Notes under the pieces: generated by a model
Database searches by the model: none
Told to the model about the DNA's origin: nothing
The model's input: the letters and a program-made list of their open reading frames with translations, nothing else
Made by a program: the position numbers and the translations under genes
Shown here: one piece after another, positions 54,722 through 64,000 of the stretch
Position numbering within the stretch: the first letter of the stretch is position 1
Layout of the letters: every line of letters begins with the position of its first letter
DNA from: Escherichia coli
Lineage (GTDB): Bacteria; Pseudomonadota; Gammaproteobacteria; Enterobacterales; Enterobacteriaceae
Assembly (NCBI RefSeq): GCF_003018255.1
Contig: NZ_CP027440.1
Reading direction: 5' to 3' (one strand)
Length of the DNA: 64,000 nucleotides

Positions 54722-55699
54722 AATGGCAATAAAGTTGAGCTATACGGCAAGATGGTTGGTGAGCGAATTCTGACCGACCGTGAAAATGGTGAAAAAGGCG
54801 ATAATTCTCAAGATACCTCTTATGCCCGTGTAGGCGTGAAAGGTGAAACTCAGATCAACCCTGAACTGACTGGTTACGGTCAGTTTGAACTAGACCTGGA
54901 AGCATCAAACAGACACAACCCTGACCAAACTCGTTTGGCATATGCTGGTTTGAGTTACAAAGATTTTGGTTCATTCGACTACGGTCGTAATGTCGGTGTC
55001 GCGTATGATGCAGAAGCATTTACTGATATGTTTGTTGAGTGGGGCGGTGACTCATGGGCTGGTACTGACCTGTTCATGACCAACCGTACCAACGGTGTTG
55101 CAACCTATCGTAACACAGATTTCTTTGGCATGGTTGAAGGTCTAAATTTTGCTCTGCAATATCAGGGTAAAAATGAAGGTACAGGCAACTACAAAGCAAA
55201 TGGCGATGGCCATGGTTTATCTGCAACTTACACTATTGACGGTTTCTCATTTGCTGGTGCTTATGCAAACTCTGACCGTACTGATTGGCAGTCTGGTGAT
55301 GGTAAAGGCGAAAGAGCCGAAGTTTGGGCGTTGTCAACAAAATATGACGCTAACAATGTCTATGCTGCTGTGATGTACGGTGAATCTCACAACATGAATT
55401 CCGACGACGGTGATGTTGTGAACAAAACACAAAACTTCGAAGCTGTTCTGCAATATCAGTTCGACTTTGGTCTGCGTCCATCCATCGGTTACTCCTATTC
55501 TAAAGCACTGGACGTAGCAGGTTACAAAGATTCTGATCGTCTGAACTATATTGAAATCGGTACCTGGTATTACTTCAATAAGAATATGAACGTATATACC
55601 GCTTATCAGATCAACCTGCTTGATAAGAGTGATTATGTTCTCGCTCATGGACTGAACACCGACGACCAACTGGCAGTTGGTATCGTCTACCAGTTCTAA
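54722..55699 (+). pseudogene. yedS: 3' part of porin gene yedS (OmpC/OmpF family), resuming at NGNKVELYGK...
   Basis: Porin beta-barrel signatures, ending in the canonical ...GIVYQF. Confidence 0.8.
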
Positions 55700-56294
55700 T
55701 CAGCCAACGCGCCGAGGCGTGTTACTGTAAAACATAACACCAGCCTGAGTTCGTCCCTCATCGAACTCAGGCTTTTTTTATTTGCATTTCATCGCCATCT
55801 GCGGCGCACGCAATTGCCAAAGCATATCGATACAGCCCCTTACCCTGCCCCTACTGGCACAATATCCTCTACCAGCAACTCTTCCAGCCAACACCCCAAA
55901 TGCATTTCTTTATAAATTTAATCTGTAACAAAACCGCTTCCCATATAGAAATATTTGCAAAAATAGTGCATGAAAAAAGCTTTTTCCCTACCAATCCGGG
56001 ATATAAATATTCATCAGTACCACAACATTCCACAGCACTAAATCTCTCCCCATCGCCCCCAAACCTCTGATAATGGTCTAAAATCATTGAGGCCACTTGC
56101 GACGACGTTACTCAATAAGGAAAGTTTGGCGTGAATAATATTCAACACCAGTGCAGCATCATAATTACATACTTACACCCGCCGACTACCGCTTTCGATA
56201 TATTGACTCAATTTTCCAGCCTGGGTAAAAATAACGACCAGCTCAGTCGCAAATATAGTGACTACCCTAACTAAGCAACAATAAGGAATACACT

Positions 56295-57146
56295 ATGACT
56301 GTTCAAACAAGTAAAAACCCGCAGGTCGATATTGCTGAAGATAATGCATTCTTCCCTTCAGAATATTCGCTTAGCCAATATACCAGTCCCGTCTCTGATC
56401 TTGATGGTGTGGACTATCCAAAACCGTATCGCGGTAAACATAAAATTCTGGTGATCGCCGCGGACGAACGTTATTTGCCGACCGATAACGGAAAACTGTT
56501 CTCGACCGGTAACCATCCGATTGAAACGTTGCTGCCGTTGTATCATCTCCACGCTGCAGGTTTCGAATTCGAAGTGGCGACCATTTCCGGTCTGATGACC
56601 AAGTTTGAATACTGGGCTATGCCACACAAAGATGAAAAAGTAATGCCATTCTTTGAGCAGCATAAATCGTTGTTCCGCAATCCGAAGAAACTCGCGGATG
56701 TTGTCGCCAGCCTCAACGCTGATAGCGAATATGCAGCAATCTTTGTTCCTGGTGGTCATGGCGCACTTATTGGTTTACCTGAAAGCCAGGACGTAGCTGC
56801 CGCTTTACAGTGGGCAATCAAAAATGACCGTTTTGTTATCTCCCTTTGCCACGGCCCGGCGGCTTTTCTGGCGCTTCGCCACGGCGATAACCCACTGAAT
56901 GGTTATTCCATTTGCGCATTCCCAGACGCCGCAGACAAACAAACGCCAGAGATAGGCTATATGCCGGGTCATCTCACCTGGTACTTCGGCGAAGAGCTGA
57001 AGAAAATGGGCATGAACATTATTAATGACGACATCACCGGGCGAGTACATAAGGACCGTAAAGTTCTCACCGGCGACAGTCCTTTCGCAGCGAATGCGTT
57101 GGGTAAACTGGCGGCGCAGGAAATGCTGGCAGCTTACGCGGGTTAA
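56295..57146 (+). CDS. hchA: Hsp31 glyoxalase/chaperone HchA (283 aa)
   Basis: Full-length match to HchA as I know it. Confidence 0.9.
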   Translation: MTVQTSKNPQVDIAEDNAFFPSEYSLSQYTSPVSDLDGVDYPKPYRGKHKILVIAADERYLPTDNGKLFSTGNHPIETLLPLYHLHAAGFEFEVATISGLMTKFEYWAMPHKDEKVMPFFEQHKSLFRNPKKLADVVASLNADSEYAAIFVPGGHGALIGLPESQDVAAALQWAIKNDRFVISLCHGPAAFLALRHGDNPLNGYSICAFPDAADKQTPEIGYMPGHLTWYFGEELKKMGMNIINDDITGRVHKDRKVLTGDSPFAANALGKLAAQEMLAAYAG

Positions 57147-57253
57147 TCCCTGTTACGTTTGAATGTAAGCGCATAATCAATCGCAGCCGCGTTAGTACTC
57201 ACGACGTGGCTGCGTGTTTTCACGGTTAATTTATGGCGTACTGAAGCCCTATG

Positions 57254-58612
57254 TTAATTTCTTTGCGGTAACGTAATCCGGAATACATTATGCTTATTGA
57301 GATAGTGATACGTAGCACTTCCCCCATGCAATTCGGCAATCGCTTTGACTAAAGAAAGACCAAGTCCCTGACCTACGGAATGACGCGAATTATCTCCCCG
57401 CCAAAATCTACGGAAGAGTTTTTCAGGCTCATGAATTTTCGTTCCAGGGCTGGCGATATCAATATTAAGAGAGCCGTTGGTATCAAGAAAACTGGTTATA
57501 TGAATACGCGATTTTTCTGGCGAATATCGAATGGCGTTAACAATAAGATTCGATAACATTCGTTGCAGTAAAATTTTATCCGCAAAGATTTGCTGATTGC
57601 ACTCGACCTTAAGGCAAATCTCTTTCTCGTCTGAAAGGTATTCAAGATAGTCCAACAAATTTTCGACTTCCTTATTGAGAGAAAGCGAATCCAGTTTCAC
57701 CAAAACATTGTTTTTATCTGCCCTGGCAAGAAACAGTATGTTCTCTGTTAACCGCGAAATATTTTCCAGCTCTTCAATGTTTCCGGCAATTGTTTTTTGA
57801 TATTCAGCGATACTTCTGGTTTGACTGAGCGTAACCTGATTCTGACCCAGTAATGCATTAATTGGTGTTCTAAGTTCATGAGCGAGATCGTCAGCAAACT
57901 GACTTAGACGCTCAAAATCTTTGACTAAAGCATGATGCATTTTATTCAACGCCTGCCCAAGAGGTTTTAGTTCTCTCGGTAATGCGCTAACCTCAACAGG
58001 CTCCCGGTTATCGTTATAATTCAGCGCTTCCGTTACACCACTCAACTTTTTGATCTCTCGTAACCCCGTTCTGATTAACAGCGGACTTAATACTGAGCAA
58101 AGTACAATGGCGACAATGCAAATTATAATGCTATTGATTTTATACTGTTCAAGCATGTTATGTCTGGCTGAAGCCAATTTAGCCACAGTAACCGTTAATG
58201 ATGGCGAAACTTCATCAATATTAATTCGTAAAGCATCTATCTCTGTGTCATTAATAATGCTTCTGTAAATGCCAGCTGCGCTGATTGTCTCACTAGCAGG
58301 TATGTTATTTAACATGCCATCACTGACATTTGTCCGGTTAACAATTTTATTGATGCCATGACCATGAATGATCAAGATATCCTGACTAACATCCATCATC
58401 CGGTTAAAGTACACAGGTAACGTATCTGGATTTACCCCATCAATTAACAACTGCTTGATCTGCGCTGTCCGGTTAATGAGTGTTGTATCATCGCGCCATT
58501 TCAACTCACTTGCCAGGCCATTATAGAGAGTCCAGACAATTCCAGCGCCAGCAACAGACAGCAGCAATATAAAAAGCAAGGTTAAACGGACGGTTATTGA
58601 TAATCTTTTCAT
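57254..58612 (-). CDS. hprS: Two-component sensor histidine kinase HprS (YedV)
   Basis: HAMP/HisKA/HATPase architecture (HELRTP H-box); 452 aa. Confidence 0.85.
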   Translation of the reverse strand: MKRLSITVRLTLLFILLLSVAGAGIVWTLYNGLASELKWRDDTTLINRTAQIKQLLIDGVNPDTLPVYFNRMMDVSQDILIIHGHGINKIVNRTNVSDGMLNNIPASETISAAGIYRSIINDTEIDALRINIDEVSPSLTVTVAKLASARHNMLEQYKINSIIICIVAIVLCSVLSPLLIRTGLREIKKLSGVTEALNYNDNREPVEVSALPRELKPLGQALNKMHHALVKDFERLSQFADDLAHELRTPINALLGQNQVTLSQTRSIAEYQKTIAGNIEELENISRLTENILFLARADKNNVLVKLDSLSLNKEVENLLDYLEYLSDEKEICLKVECNQQIFADKILLQRMLSNLIVNAIRYSPEKSRIHITSFLDTNGSLNIDIASPGTKIHEPEKLFRRFWRGDNSRHSVGQGLGLSLVKAIAELHGGSATYHYLNKHNVFRITLPQRN

Positions 58613-59283
58613 TATTTTTTTACCGCTACGAATGAATATCCCATCCCACGGATTGTGGCAATGAGCTTTTCAGGAAAAGGATCATCAACTTTTGCGCGGA
58701 GCCTGCGAATGGCGACATCCACCGTATTGGTATCACTATCAAAGTTGATTCCCCAAATTTCACTCGCAATAACCGTTCTGGGTATAATTTCGCCAGCTCT
58801 GGAGGCCAGTAGCCAAAGTAACTGAAACTCCTTGCGCGTCAGTGTAATACTGATATTGTTCCTGCTCACACTTTGACTAACAGAGTCCATTCTTAAGCCA
58901 CTGATTTCTAATGTTGAATTCAAAGCGTGATGTTGCCTTAATTGTGCCCGAACCCTTGCCAGCAACTCAGAAAATGAAAAAGGTTTTACCAGATAATCAT
59001 TTGCCCCACTGTCCAGCCCTCTGACTCTGTCATCGATAGAATCCCTTGCAGTAAGGCAAATAACAGGGGTTTGCTTTGCTGTTCTTAACGTTTGTAAGAT
59101 CTGCCAGCCATCCATACCCGGAAGCATAATATCCAGAATGATCAATGCATAATCATCCTTCAGCGCAAGATAAAGCCCATCTCTGCCATCAGAAACGGCA
59201 TCAATGACATAACCCGCTTCGGAAAGCCCCTGCGTTACCCATTCCTGGGTCCTTTGATTATCTTCAATAAGTAGAATCTTCAT
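58612..59283 (-). CDS. hprR: OmpR-family response regulator HprR (YedW, 223 aa)
   Basis: ORF 58612..59394 trimmed to MKILLIEDN... Confidence 0.85.
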   Translation of the reverse strand: MKILLIEDNQRTQEWVTQGLSEAGYVIDAVSDGRDGLYLALKDDYALIILDIMLPGMDGWQILQTLRTAKQTPVICLTARDSIDDRVRGLDSGANDYLVKPFSFSELLARVRAQLRQHHALNSTLEISGLRMDSVSQSVSRNNISITLTRKEFQLLWLLASRAGEIIPRTVIASEIWGINFDSDTNTVDVAIRRLRAKVDDPFPEKLIATIRGMGYSFVAVKK

Positions 59284-59415
59284 GAAAATAATATGCCATA
59301 AATCATATGTTATAGAAACAGCCTGGTTCATTACAAAATTGTAATGCTGCTGTAAGGTTACCCTGGACGTTTTTTCGCTATCCTCAAAACTCATTCACAT
59401 GACAAGGATATAAAC

Positions 59416-59829
59416 ATGTTAAAGCGTTATTTAGTACTCTCCGTAGTAACGGCTGCATTTTCATTACCTTCTTTGGTCTATGCTGCACAACAAAACATTC
59501 TTAGCGTGCACATTTTGAACCAGCAAACAGGAAAACCCGCTGCCGACGTGACAGTCACTCTTGAAAAGAAAGCGGACAACGGCTGGTTACAACTTAATAC
59601 CGCCAAAACAGATAAGGATGGACGAATTAAGGCACTGTGGCCCGAGCAAACTGCAACTACGGGCGATTACCGTGTCGTATTTAAAACCGGGGACTATTTC
59701 AAGAAACAAAATCTTGAAAGTTTCTTCCCTGAGATCCCCGTTGAATTTCATATTAATAAAGTGAACGAGCATTATCATGTGCCTTTATTACTTAGCCAAT
59801 ATGGGTATTCAACCTATCGTGGCAGTTAA
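59416..59829 (+). CDS. hiuH: 5-hydroxyisourate hydrolase (transthyretin-like), periplasmic
   Basis: Signal peptide and the C-terminal YRGS motif of the family. Confidence 0.85.
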
Positions 59830-59931
59830 TGCATAAATATATAAAAGCAGATCTCTGCTACTGTTAGGGAGGTGACTCCCTGACAGATTAACAGTAAACG
59901 GCTCTTGCTGGCTAACGACAAAAAAGTGTGA

Positions 59932-60942
<1,011 letters not shown>

Positions 60943-61578
60943 ATGCGTCTGACAGCAAAACAGGTGACATGGCTGAAAGTTTGCCTGCATCTTGCCGGAT
61001 TGTTGCCGTTTCTCTGGCTGGTCTGGGCGATTAATCACGGTGGATTGGGTGCCGATCCGGTGAAAGATATTCAGCATTTTACTGGTCGCACTGCACTGAA
61101 ATTTTTGCTGGCGACCTTGTTAATCACACCTCTGGCACGCTACGCAAAACAGCCGTTATTGATACGCACTCGCCGCCTGTTAGGCTTATGGTGCTTTGCC
61201 TGGGCGACACTGCATTTAACCAGTTACGTATTGCTGGAGCTGGGCGTGAATAATCTGGCGTTATTAGGTAAGGAGTTAATTACTCGGCCTTATTTAACGT
61301 TAGGTATTATCAGCTGGGTAATTTTGCTTGCGTTAGCGTTCACTTCAACCCAGGCGATGCAGCGAAAACTCGGTAAACACTGGCAACAGTTGCATAACTT
61401 CGTCTATCTTGTCGCGATCCTGGCCCCAATACATTATTTGTGGTCAGTGAAGATTATTTCACCGCAGCCGCTCATCTACGCTGGGCTGGCGGTACTGCTT
61501 TTAGCCTTACGGTATAAGAAGTTGCTTTCCTTTTTCAACCGGTTACGCAAGCAGGTTCACAACAAATTATCTCTATAA
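60943..61578 (+). CDS. msrQ: Haem-binding membrane subunit MsrQ (YedZ)
   Basis: Polytopic membrane protein immediately after msrP. Confidence 0.88.
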
Positions 61579-61599
61579 CTTCATATTGCCGACAAAGTA

Positions 61600-61645
61600 C
61601 GCGTTATCCCTGCCGGATGCGGCGCGAGCGCCCTATCCGGCCCAC
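61600..61645. repeat. REP (repetitive extragenic palindrome) element
   Basis: tgccggatgcggcgcgagcgccctatccggcc, the classic GCCGGATGCGGCG...CGCCTTATCCGGCC-type unit. Confidence 0.7.
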
Positions 61646-61834
61646 ACAGATCGCATCAAGTTATGTTTCGTTTGTCATCAACCTCAAATCATCGACATAA
61701 TTTATTTTATTTCAATAAGATAGATAAGCACACCTGAGAGAACTATTCTCTTGTCTCCTAAGAGTTGTTGCATTTTGTTATATGTTACAATATAACATTA
61801 CACATCATATACATTAACTCTGGAGGAAACTGTT

Positions 61835-62485
61835 TTGGCGATTCGTCTTCATAAACTGGCTGTTGCTTTAGGTGTCTTTATTGTTAGCGCTCCTGCCTTT
61901 TCGCATGGTCATCACTCACACGGCAAACCCTTAACAGAGGTCGAACAAAAAGCTGCTAATGGTGTTTTTGATGATACCAATGTACAAAACCGAACGCTCA
62001 GTGACTGGGATGGAGTCTGGCAATCCGTTTACCCTTTACTGCAAAGTGGCAAACTTGATCCCGTCTTTCAGAAGAAAGCGGATGCAGATAAAACCAAACC
62101 ATTTGCTGAAATTAAAGATTATTATCGCAAAGGTTATGCGACAGATATCGAAATGATTGGCATTGAGGACGGCATTGTCGAATTCCATAGAAATAATGAA
62201 ACAACATCCTGTAAATATGATTACGATGGATACAAAATACTCACCTATAAATCAGGCAAGAAAGGCGTTCGTTACTTATTCGAATGTAAAGATCCTGAAA
62301 GCAAAGCCCCTAAATATATACAATTTAGCGATCATATAATTGCACCACGAAAATCATCTCATTTTCACATTTTTATGGGTAATGATTCCCAGCAATCTTT
62401 ATTGAATGAAATGGAAAACTGGCCAACGTATTATCCCTATCAGTTGAGTAGCGAAGAAGTGGTCGAGGAGATGATGTCTCATTGA
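61835..62485 (+). CDS. zinT: Periplasmic zinc/cadmium-binding protein ZinT (YodA)
   Basis: Signal peptide followed by the His-rich HGHHSHG stretch; 216 aa. Confidence 0.9.
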
Positions 62486-63154
62486 TTTTTTTGCGCTGAC
62501 TTCAGTTATTTAACAGAACAGTGCCTGGTAGTAACAACAATAATTTACCAAGACAAATAAGTAAGACAAACTCAGACACGCTCATGCTTGAGACGTGTCT
62601 TTTTTATTATGTCTGTAGAAAAAAACTGAGAAAACGGCGAACAATAAATACACAACTCACCAATACAGACTGGCTGCGCCAATGTCTCCAGGAGCAAGTC
62701 ATCTGTCATGGTAAAGCTAACCAGAAATATAGGTTAATTTTGGTATTTAAACCTTTTTTACTTGTTAGTATGATACAAAGGCTTTCAAAAAAGCTGGGAA
62801 ATTCAACAACTCTTGGAAATTATGGACTTTGTCCCGCGGCTTTAATCTGACGGCCGCGTTCCTTTTTTTGCTCAATTATTGACCCCTTCTCTACGCAAAT
62901 TCAGTTCCCACCACTAACTTTGCGGCAGCTTCGTAGGATCAATGTCTAAAAGAATAATGGTGACCGATAAGAAAACGACTGAATAACTGCAGATTTTCGC
63001 TCGAGACCTTCTTGTCAGATCCATAGCGAATCAAGTGCTGAATGTCACAGTATCGAACAGAAAACAGTGACGATCTAACCCTTCAAGAATATTCTACGAT
63101 TGTTCTGTTTAGGAAAAGCAAGGCGGGAAGTCGGGAGATAAGTCATTGATAAAG

Positions 63155-63244
63155 TGGCGGAGAGAGGGGGATTTGAACCCCCGGTAGAGTTGCCCCTACT
63201 CCGGTTTTCGAGACCGGTCCGTTCAGCCGCTCCGGCATCTCTCC
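63155..63244 (-). tRNA. serU: tRNA-Ser (anticodon CGA; serU-like), 90 nt including CCA
   Basis: The minus strand reads GGAGAGATGCCGGAGCGGCTGAACGGACCGGTCTCGAAAACCGGAGTAGGGGCAACTCTACCGGGGGTTCAAATCCCCCTCTCTCCGCCA, with a long variable arm. Confidence 0.9.
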
Positions 63245-63337
63245 GTTCAGATGGTTGCCATGATGCCAGGAAATTTGGCATTTTAACAGTCCCTGTCCGT
63301 GCAATTTTGTTCAAGTGACGAGTTTGCGAGCAAAACG

Positions 63338-64000
63338 ATGATTAAGTGGCCCTGGAAAGTACAAGAATCAGCACATCAAACTGCCCTTCCCTGGCAGGAA
63401 GCACTATCGATCCCCCTTTTAACGTGTCTGACGGAACAGGAACAAAGCAAATTAGTCACTCTTGCCGAACGTTTTTTACAGCAAAAGCGGCTTGTTCCTT
63501 TACAGGGCTTTGAACTGGATTCATTAAGAAGCTGCCGGATAGCACTTCTATTTTGCCTGCCCGTTCTGGAGTTAGGACTGGAATGGCTGGATGGTTTTCA
63601 TGAAGTCTTAATTTATCCTGCGCCATTTGTGGTCGATGATGAATGGGAAGACGATATCGGTCTGGTGCATAACCAACGTATTGTTCAGTCAGGTCAGAGC
63701 TGGCAGCAAGGGCCTATCGTTTTGAACTGGTTGGATATACAAGATTCTTTTGATGCTTCTGGTTTTAACCTGATTATTCATGAAGTCGCTCATAAGCTGG
63801 ACACCCGTAACGGCGATCGCGCCAGCGGAGTTCCCTTTATTCCGTTGCGTGAGGTTGCTGGCTGGGAACACGATCTTCATGCTGCAATGAACAACATTCA
63901 GGAAGAAATCGAATTGGTTGGCGAGAATGCGGCGAGCATTGATGCTTATGCTGCCAGTGATCCTGCTGAATGTTTTGCCGTACTTTCTGAATATTTCTTT
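63338..64000 (+). CDS. mtfA: Mlc-titration factor MtfA (YeeI), 5' part (continues past the window end)
   Basis: Starts [19 protein letters not shown]... and includes the zinc-peptidase motif HEVAHKLD; no stop within the window. Confidence 0.85.

Follow-up and report, generated by a model that had tools for sequence, protein, structure and literature searches.

Bacterial pangenomes reportedly contain switched intergenic regions and accessory-gene dimorphisms, of the kind that Oren et al. in PNAS in 2014 and Thorpe et al. in 2018 (Piggy) are said to have described. The interval between zinT and serU of Escherichia coli resembles the switched intergenic regions in that two unalignable alleles lie between core genes, occur at intermediate frequency and are shuffled by recombination. 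It differs from a plain switched spacer because one of its alleles carries a whole gene, yodB, which makes the locus a presence/absence polymorphism as well. In K-12 the gene order is zinT (b1973), yodB (b1974), serU (b1975) and mtfA (b1976), as an earlier note on the DNA studied here had correctly indicated. Two further systems border on this one: prophages that carry relatives of YodB as cargo genes (morons), and the yersiniabactin high-pathogenicity island (HPI), whose spread within E. coli by homologous recombination takes the flanking yeeI (mtfA) along (Schubert et al. 2009, PMC2606025).

Here we analyse a stretch of 64,000 nucleotides of an E. coli genome (contig NZ_CP027440.1), referred to below as the window, in which zinT is followed by serU without an intervening yodB, and compare it with 5426 complete E. 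coli genomes, with E. albertii and with the zinT loci of other genera. We consider it likely that E. coli has long been dimorphic between zinT and serU, that the window represents the haplotype without yodB, and that the yodB-less state is the ancestral one.

The zinT–serU locus and its two alleles

The locus comprises the following features, numbered from the first nucleotide of the window:

59938-60942: msrP, upstream of msrQ
60943-61578: msrQ, between msrP and zinT
61835-62485, plus strand: zinT, gene of a metal-binding protein (from the list of open reading frames and the RefSeq annotation of homologous loci)
62486-63154: the gap between zinT and serU, 669 bp
62486-62707, no strand: allele-specific non-coding block of 222 bp (from blastn against K-12)
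62574-62609, plus strand: probable intrinsic terminator of zinT, a stem-loop with a T-run, 88 bp past the stop codon
62708-63154, no strand: segment of 447 bp common to both alleles and adjoining serU, 96.9% identical to K-12
62746-62872, plus strand: near-invariant sub-block with a promoter-like site, a hairpin and a T-run, outside the yodB polymorphism
63155-63244, minus strand: serU, tRNA-Ser(CGA) (ARAGORN; Rfam tRNA match of 57 bits)
63339-64000, plus strand: mtfA, running past the end of the window (tblastn, 100% identity to residues 1-221 of K-12 MtfA)

The start codon of zinT in the window is TTG. As zinT ends at 62485 and serU begins at 63155, the gap measures 669 bp, and its G+C content of 39.2%, compared with 50.4% for the whole window, bears out its earlier description as AT-rich; the G+C content of zinT is also 39%. 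The 3' end of serU points toward the gap, and the tRNA gene is intact and free of any inserted island.

Further upstream, the interval between msrQ and zinT holds a REP-like palindromic element at 61577-61642, with a below-threshold Rfam match to naRNA4 on both strands. Between about 40000 and 54726 the window is approximately 94-95% identical to P2-like prophages of E. coli, the insertion adjoining hprS; the matched prophage records annotate integrase, replication endonuclease, portal and terminase genes, and their cargo varies, some of them encoding for example a retron Ec67-type reverse transcriptase.

The junctions of the two alleles are defined by blastn of the window against K-12. The alignment proceeds at 97.8% identity over the last 186 bp of zinT and stops exactly at 62485, so that the zinT stop codon forms the left border of the variable block; it restarts at 62708 and continues at 96.9% identity through serU and mtfA. 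At the equivalent position the window has 222 bp and K-12 has 995 bp, the latter consisting of a 342-bp spacer, yodB (531 bp) and a further 122 bp. The two loci have their flanking genes in common, arranged and oriented alike; that of K-12 differs in having 995 bp with yodB where the window has unrelated, non-coding DNA, and in a hairpin after zinT that lacks a U-tract. The right border is fuzzy: six fixed differences at 62715-62730 set the two allele classes apart. The 447-bp segment is gap-free in 12 strains and about 96-97% identical between the alleles. Measured against shuffled sequences, the 222 bp align to the K-12 zinT–yodB spacer with z = 4 and to the yodB 3' flank with z = -0.1; the possibility that they are a diverged remnant of the K-12 block was considered and rejected, as only the hairpin is common to the two. 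One strain, HS-02, has a further small internal deletion inside the 222-bp block.

Alignment from zinT to mtfA against K-12 and other E. coli genomes confirms that yodB is absent from the window. The earlier note had spoken of a deletion or a replacement: replacement is an apt description of 222 bp in the position of 995 bp, while deletion in the lineage of the window is not supported. Its statement that the gap has no membrane-protein or cytochrome b561 ORF is upheld by both tblastn and Pfam. With K-12 YodB as the query, the best tblastn match in the whole window has E = 0.27 and falls outside the gap, and within the gap there is only a 12-residue match (E = 3.8); the translated search of 62486-63154, set beforehand as the check that could overturn the claim, accordingly found no yodB homologue. 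No ORF of some 175 aa resembling YodB or PF01292 occurs in the interval, and a Pfam search of its six longest ORFs (27-109 aa) gave nothing below E = 0.1 and no match to PF01292. RefSeq annotates no feature in the corresponding gap of the yodB-less genomes inspected, and a search of 61500-63400 against Rfam at E <= 1 returned the tRNA alone, plus below-threshold REP-like matches outside the gap.

Frequencies, haplotypes and the neighbouring HPI

The 222-bp allele occurs in 2304 of the 5426 genomes (about 42%) at 94.6-99.1% identity and the K-12 yodB block in 3114 (57%); since these counts sum to 5418, the two-allele polymorphism is nearly exhaustive. Carriers of the 222-bp allele include ST131, Nissle 1917, ATCC 25922, an APEC O2:K1 strain and an O26 strain, E. 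coli C being counted with them by the length of its matched span; yodB is carried by K-12, ATCC 8739, O157:H7 and O111:H8. The sequences of the two alleles are mutually unalignable and their flanks are 97-98% identical, as is characteristic of a switched spacer or accessory-gene polymorphism.

A comparison of 12 strains reveals that both haplotypes are linked blocks that reach into zinT on one side and into the 447 bp beside serU on the other. Within the 447-bp segment, 0-3 positions distinguish one yodB-positive strain from another, and 16-21 distinguish them from yodB-less strains; in zinT the corresponding figures are 1-4 differences within the yodB-positive strains and 11-17 between the classes. 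The yodB-less allele varies within E. coli by up to 15 differences in 222 bp, and the yodB allele by 5-8 differences in its 342-bp non-coding part. Both haplotypes pass between lineages by homologous recombination: DETEC-S792 is a recombinant that lacks yodB, yet has a zinT close to the yodB-positive type, and the window is itself a mosaic, its zinT differing at 2 positions from ST131/Nissle and at 14 from S792, and its gap resembling that of S792 (3 and 1 differences). Over 55000-63700 the window has no close relative among the 5426 genomes, the best match being DETEC-S792 at 98.9-99.0% and all others reaching at most 98.4%.

Some of these exchanges may have taken place alongside the HPI at asnT, about 1 kb from the locus. 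In the O26 strain RM10386 (locus L104, 2810-10001) the yersiniabactin HPI stands at asnT directly past mtfA, and its yodB-less spacer matches that of an APEC O2:K1:H4 strain with 0 differences over the 447 bp and with 1 mismatch and 1 gap over the 222 bp. In a study of ST410 that used fyuA and yodB as qPCR markers, the B5/H24RxC isolates analysed were fyuA-positive and yodB-negative, and those of B4/H24RxC yodB-positive and fyuA-negative (PMC10786849). Both O26 RM10386 and the ST410 clone B5 resemble the described co-transfer of the HPI with its flank (PMC2606025) in combining HPI or fyuA with a yodB-less spacer, which suggests that the spacer allele travels with the HPI by hitchhiking. The window departs from this system in that it ends inside mtfA and that its closest relative, DETEC-S792, is yodB-less without the HPI. 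Since the presence or absence of yodB marks the haplotype beside asnT, it can be used to track the recombination that brings in the HPI, as in the ST410 study (PMC10786849).

The hairpin downstream of zinT and the conserved block

The hairpin with a T-run that the earlier note had placed at about 62576-62606 is correctly located; stem and T-run were recovered at 62574-62609. The stem is formed by 62574-62584 paired with 62589-62600 and is followed by TTTTTTATTAT (T6 + ATTAT); a one-base bulge causes a simple terminator scanner to miss it. The predicted fold of -17.9 kcal/mol lies well below that of shuffled sequences (z = -3.45). E. albertii has a hairpin at the same offset, with a compensatory A-U to G-C change and the U-tract retained, and the K-12 allele also has one (CAGACACGCTCAT...GACGTGTCT), located about 90 bp past the zinT stop as in the window; a U-tract follows it in the window and in E. 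albertii and is missing in K-12. A G+C-rich stem-loop and a U-tract downstream of the stop codon and on the coding strand are the hallmarks of an intrinsic terminator, and conservation of the pairing lends this assignment modest support across the three lineages compared. It is probable, judging from these sequence features, that 62574-62609 terminates zinT.

A second element lies within the segment common to both alleles. The sub-block 62746-62872 begins with a promoter-like site (TTTAAA-17-TATGAT at 62746-62774) and contains a hairpin at 62835-62858 and a T7 run at 62863-62869. In 12 strains representing both alleles it shows 2 singleton SNPs compared with 20 variable sites in the next 152 bp, and a conserved block of 131 bp is present as a single copy in 5417 of the 5426 E. 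coli genomes. About 109 bp of the block are absent from E. albertii and are bounded in E. coli by CCTTTTTT direct repeats at 62752-59 and 62861-68; a repeated mobile element was considered for the 131-bp block and rejected on account of its single copy. The fold of the conserved block does not differ significantly from that of shuffled sequences (z = -1.3), there is no Rfam match or annotation for 62746-62872, and we found no literature on an sRNA at this site or on a link between zinT and yodB. It is possible that 62746-62872 encodes a short, unannotated transcript.

A 16-nt inverted repeat, complementary at 15 of 16 positions, connects 61760-61775, in the presumed -35 region of zinT, with 62799-62814, inside the conserved block; it may be due to chance.

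Polarity, origin of yodB and competing readings

A scan for ZinT in species-representative genomes yielded 80 loci. Synteny of msrQ and zinT is retained in only two non-contaminant loci, those of E. albertii (NBRC 107761, L004) and Escherichia sp. MOD1-EC7003 (L003), and yodB is absent from the locus in both; two contigs in metagenome bins that carry zinT–yodB–mtfA at 99% identity are contaminants of E. coli origin. In other genera, yodB is missing from the 5 kb around zinT at all 76 loci, and a search of the E. coli collection for a cryptic-clade genome found none. A search of protein databases placed every Escherichia ZinT in a single 90% cluster and yielded no additional outgroup. L003 (5649-5816) represents a third state of the locus: no more than 5 bp separate its zinT stop codon from the homologue of 63009, with about 521 bp lost, and only the first 14 bp of the serU 3' end follow before the sequence breaks off, suggesting that serU harbours an island.

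E. albertii is the single outgroup with an alignable spacer. Its gene order is zinT–serU–mtfA without yodB, and blastn matches to the window span both junctions (62400-62517 at 83% and 62689-62757 at 77%). The 222 bp align to the E. albertii spacer with z = 18.7 relative to shuffles, at 58.6% identity overall and 70% near the hairpin. The E. albertii spacer thus resembles that of the window in its lack of yodB, its colinearity at both junctions and its terminator hairpin with a U-tract; it differs in its limited identity over the 222 bp and in lacking the approximately 109 bp (~62760-62868) carried by all E. coli. The colinearity across both junctions argues that the yodB-less state is the older one and that the yodB block was gained, and on these sequence comparisons the yodB-less gene content is most likely ancestral.

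According to this account, the yodB-less haplotype consists of zinT, the conserved hairpin and T-run as its probable terminator, and non-coding DNA up to serU, a layout shared with E. albertii. The yodB haplotype of K-12, O157:H7 and others carries its 995-bp block in place of the 222 bp. This block is made up of a version of the zinT 3' flank so diverged that nothing but the hairpin can still be recognised, and of the cytochrome b561 gene yodB, probably acquired by horizontal transfer, together with the region upstream of it. Identity of the spacer following zinT is 55% between K-12 and the window, 60% between E. albertii and the window, and 47% between K-12 and E. albertii. We infer that the yodB block resides on a haplotype that is either of ancient divergence or derived from a relative not sampled so far. 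The yodB haplotype is deeply diverged and also keeps the zinT hairpin, and both haplotypes could predate E. coli; 'ancestral' therefore refers to gene content and not necessarily to the lineage of the sequence.

As to the source of yodB, a protein search with YodB returns a cluster of E. coli sequences at 99% identity, below which no full-length match exceeds 77%; the next matches bear the names Citrobacter, Hafnia and, rarely, Salmonella. The closest relatives outside E. coli, with 76-77% amino-acid and 71% nucleotide identity, are cargo genes of prophages (loci L089-L094, from a Citrobacter portucalensis genome and metagenome contigs). Two of these relatives with 76% identity, P0010 and P0004, lie in reverse orientation, mostly between holin/lysozyme genes and HNH/small-terminase genes and in one contig with tail-fibre assembly genes on one side instead, which is the layout of a moron, a self-contained gene between late-gene modules. 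At the nucleotide level, the prophage relatives are homologous to K-12 over yodB itself and as much as 88 bp of the sequence upstream. Unlike these morons, K-12 yodB is not inside a prophage and has no phage genes around it, and the window has no YodB gene at all. The cargo context is more in keeping with a gain than with a loss of yodB, and the typical phage-cargo position indicates that genes of the yodB type are mobile, without giving the direction between phage and chromosome; yodB may thus be of phage origin. Its G+C content of 42% does not mark it as foreign, since zinT and the whole spacer are also low (39%). P0047 and P0059, which were considered as a divergent donor lineage, turned out to be copies from the usual E. 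coli locus that are frameshifted or badly assembled.

Three other readings of the gap can be set against the gain of yodB. The reading of the earlier note, that yodB was ancestral here and disappeared, through a deletion with filler DNA, from the lineage leading to the window allele, draws on the presence of yodB at the site in K-12 and 57% of complete E. coli genomes and on a left break, exactly at the zinT stop codon, that could be a deletion end. We regard it as quite unlikely: the 222 bp are no subset of the K-12 block but are homologous to, and colinear with, the E. albertii spacer across both junctions, the yodB-less allele is the more diverse of the two in E. coli, and yodB stands beside zinT in no other genus (76 loci). 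With 2304 of 5426 genomes carrying the 222-bp allele, and with its colinearity with E. albertii, a lineage-specific loss is not supported. The proximity of a tRNA gene, to which the earlier note had also pointed, raises the question of whether the gap is the scar of an island or prophage once integrated in serU and since excised or decayed, with yodB as its last remnant and the window as the empty site. serU is a documented attachment site (an Stx1d prophage lies between serU and yodB, PMC9729726; a phage record, KU052038, is named SerU-LTIIb; an integrase adjoins the gap in Nissle), its 3' end faces the gap, and the relatives of YodB are prophage cargo. The variable block, however, abuts the zinT stop; between it and serU lie 447 bp found in both alleles and partly in E. 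albertii. Where an island or prophage occupies serU in other strains, the match ends within the tRNA gene, at 63168 or 63216 of the window, and not at 62708, whereas the window is colinear through serU with empty-site strains. The list of open reading frames has no integrase in the gap, no repeat of the serU 3' end was found in the gap or at the edges of the block, and the K-12 block has no phage homology beyond yodB and the 88 bp upstream. The 447-bp separation, the intact serU and the lack of an integrase and of a 3'-end repeat leave no pointer to an event at a tRNA attachment site, and we judge the scar very improbable.

That the gap conceals a small functional gene in place of yodB is the most far-fetched of the three. 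The candidate is a hydrophobic 27-aa ORF on the minus strand (62502-62585, MSVSEFVLLICLGKLLLLLPGTVLLNN), reminiscent of a type I toxin-like peptide and intact in 7 of 7 E. coli copies examined; but it has no Shine-Dalgarno sequence, its start codon falls inside the loop of the terminator hairpin, stop codons interrupt it in E. albertii, its few substitutions are all non-synonymous as far as seen, and it has no Pfam match and is unannotated in every RefSeq record inspected. It was rejected as a toxin-like gene because it lacks a ribosome-binding site and is broken in E. albertii. A broader scenario, which we consider unlikely, would join several of the above observations: the two haplotypes would be as diverged as E. 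coli and E. albertii and maintained by selection at intermediate frequency, one with a domesticated, prophage-derived cytochrome b561 (yodB) and a zinT hairpin that has lost its U-tract, the other with zinT cleanly terminated. With the U-tract lost, transcription from the zinc-regulated zinT promoter may extend into yodB. Independently of this, the block at 62746-62872, found in all E. coli and absent from E. albertii, may encode an unannotated small RNA.

The preferred reading remains that of a two-allele polymorphism in which yodB was gained. The gap is an instance of an accessory-gene polymorphism that is already known, and the allele in the window is common, ordinary and probably ancestral. 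The K-12 gene order consequently serves poorly as the standard by which deletions are called in other lineages of E. coli. Absence of yodB is the normal state for about two fifths of E. coli genomes, and the role of yodB is uncharacterised; if the gene derives from prophage cargo, this would provide a lead on the function of the cytochrome.
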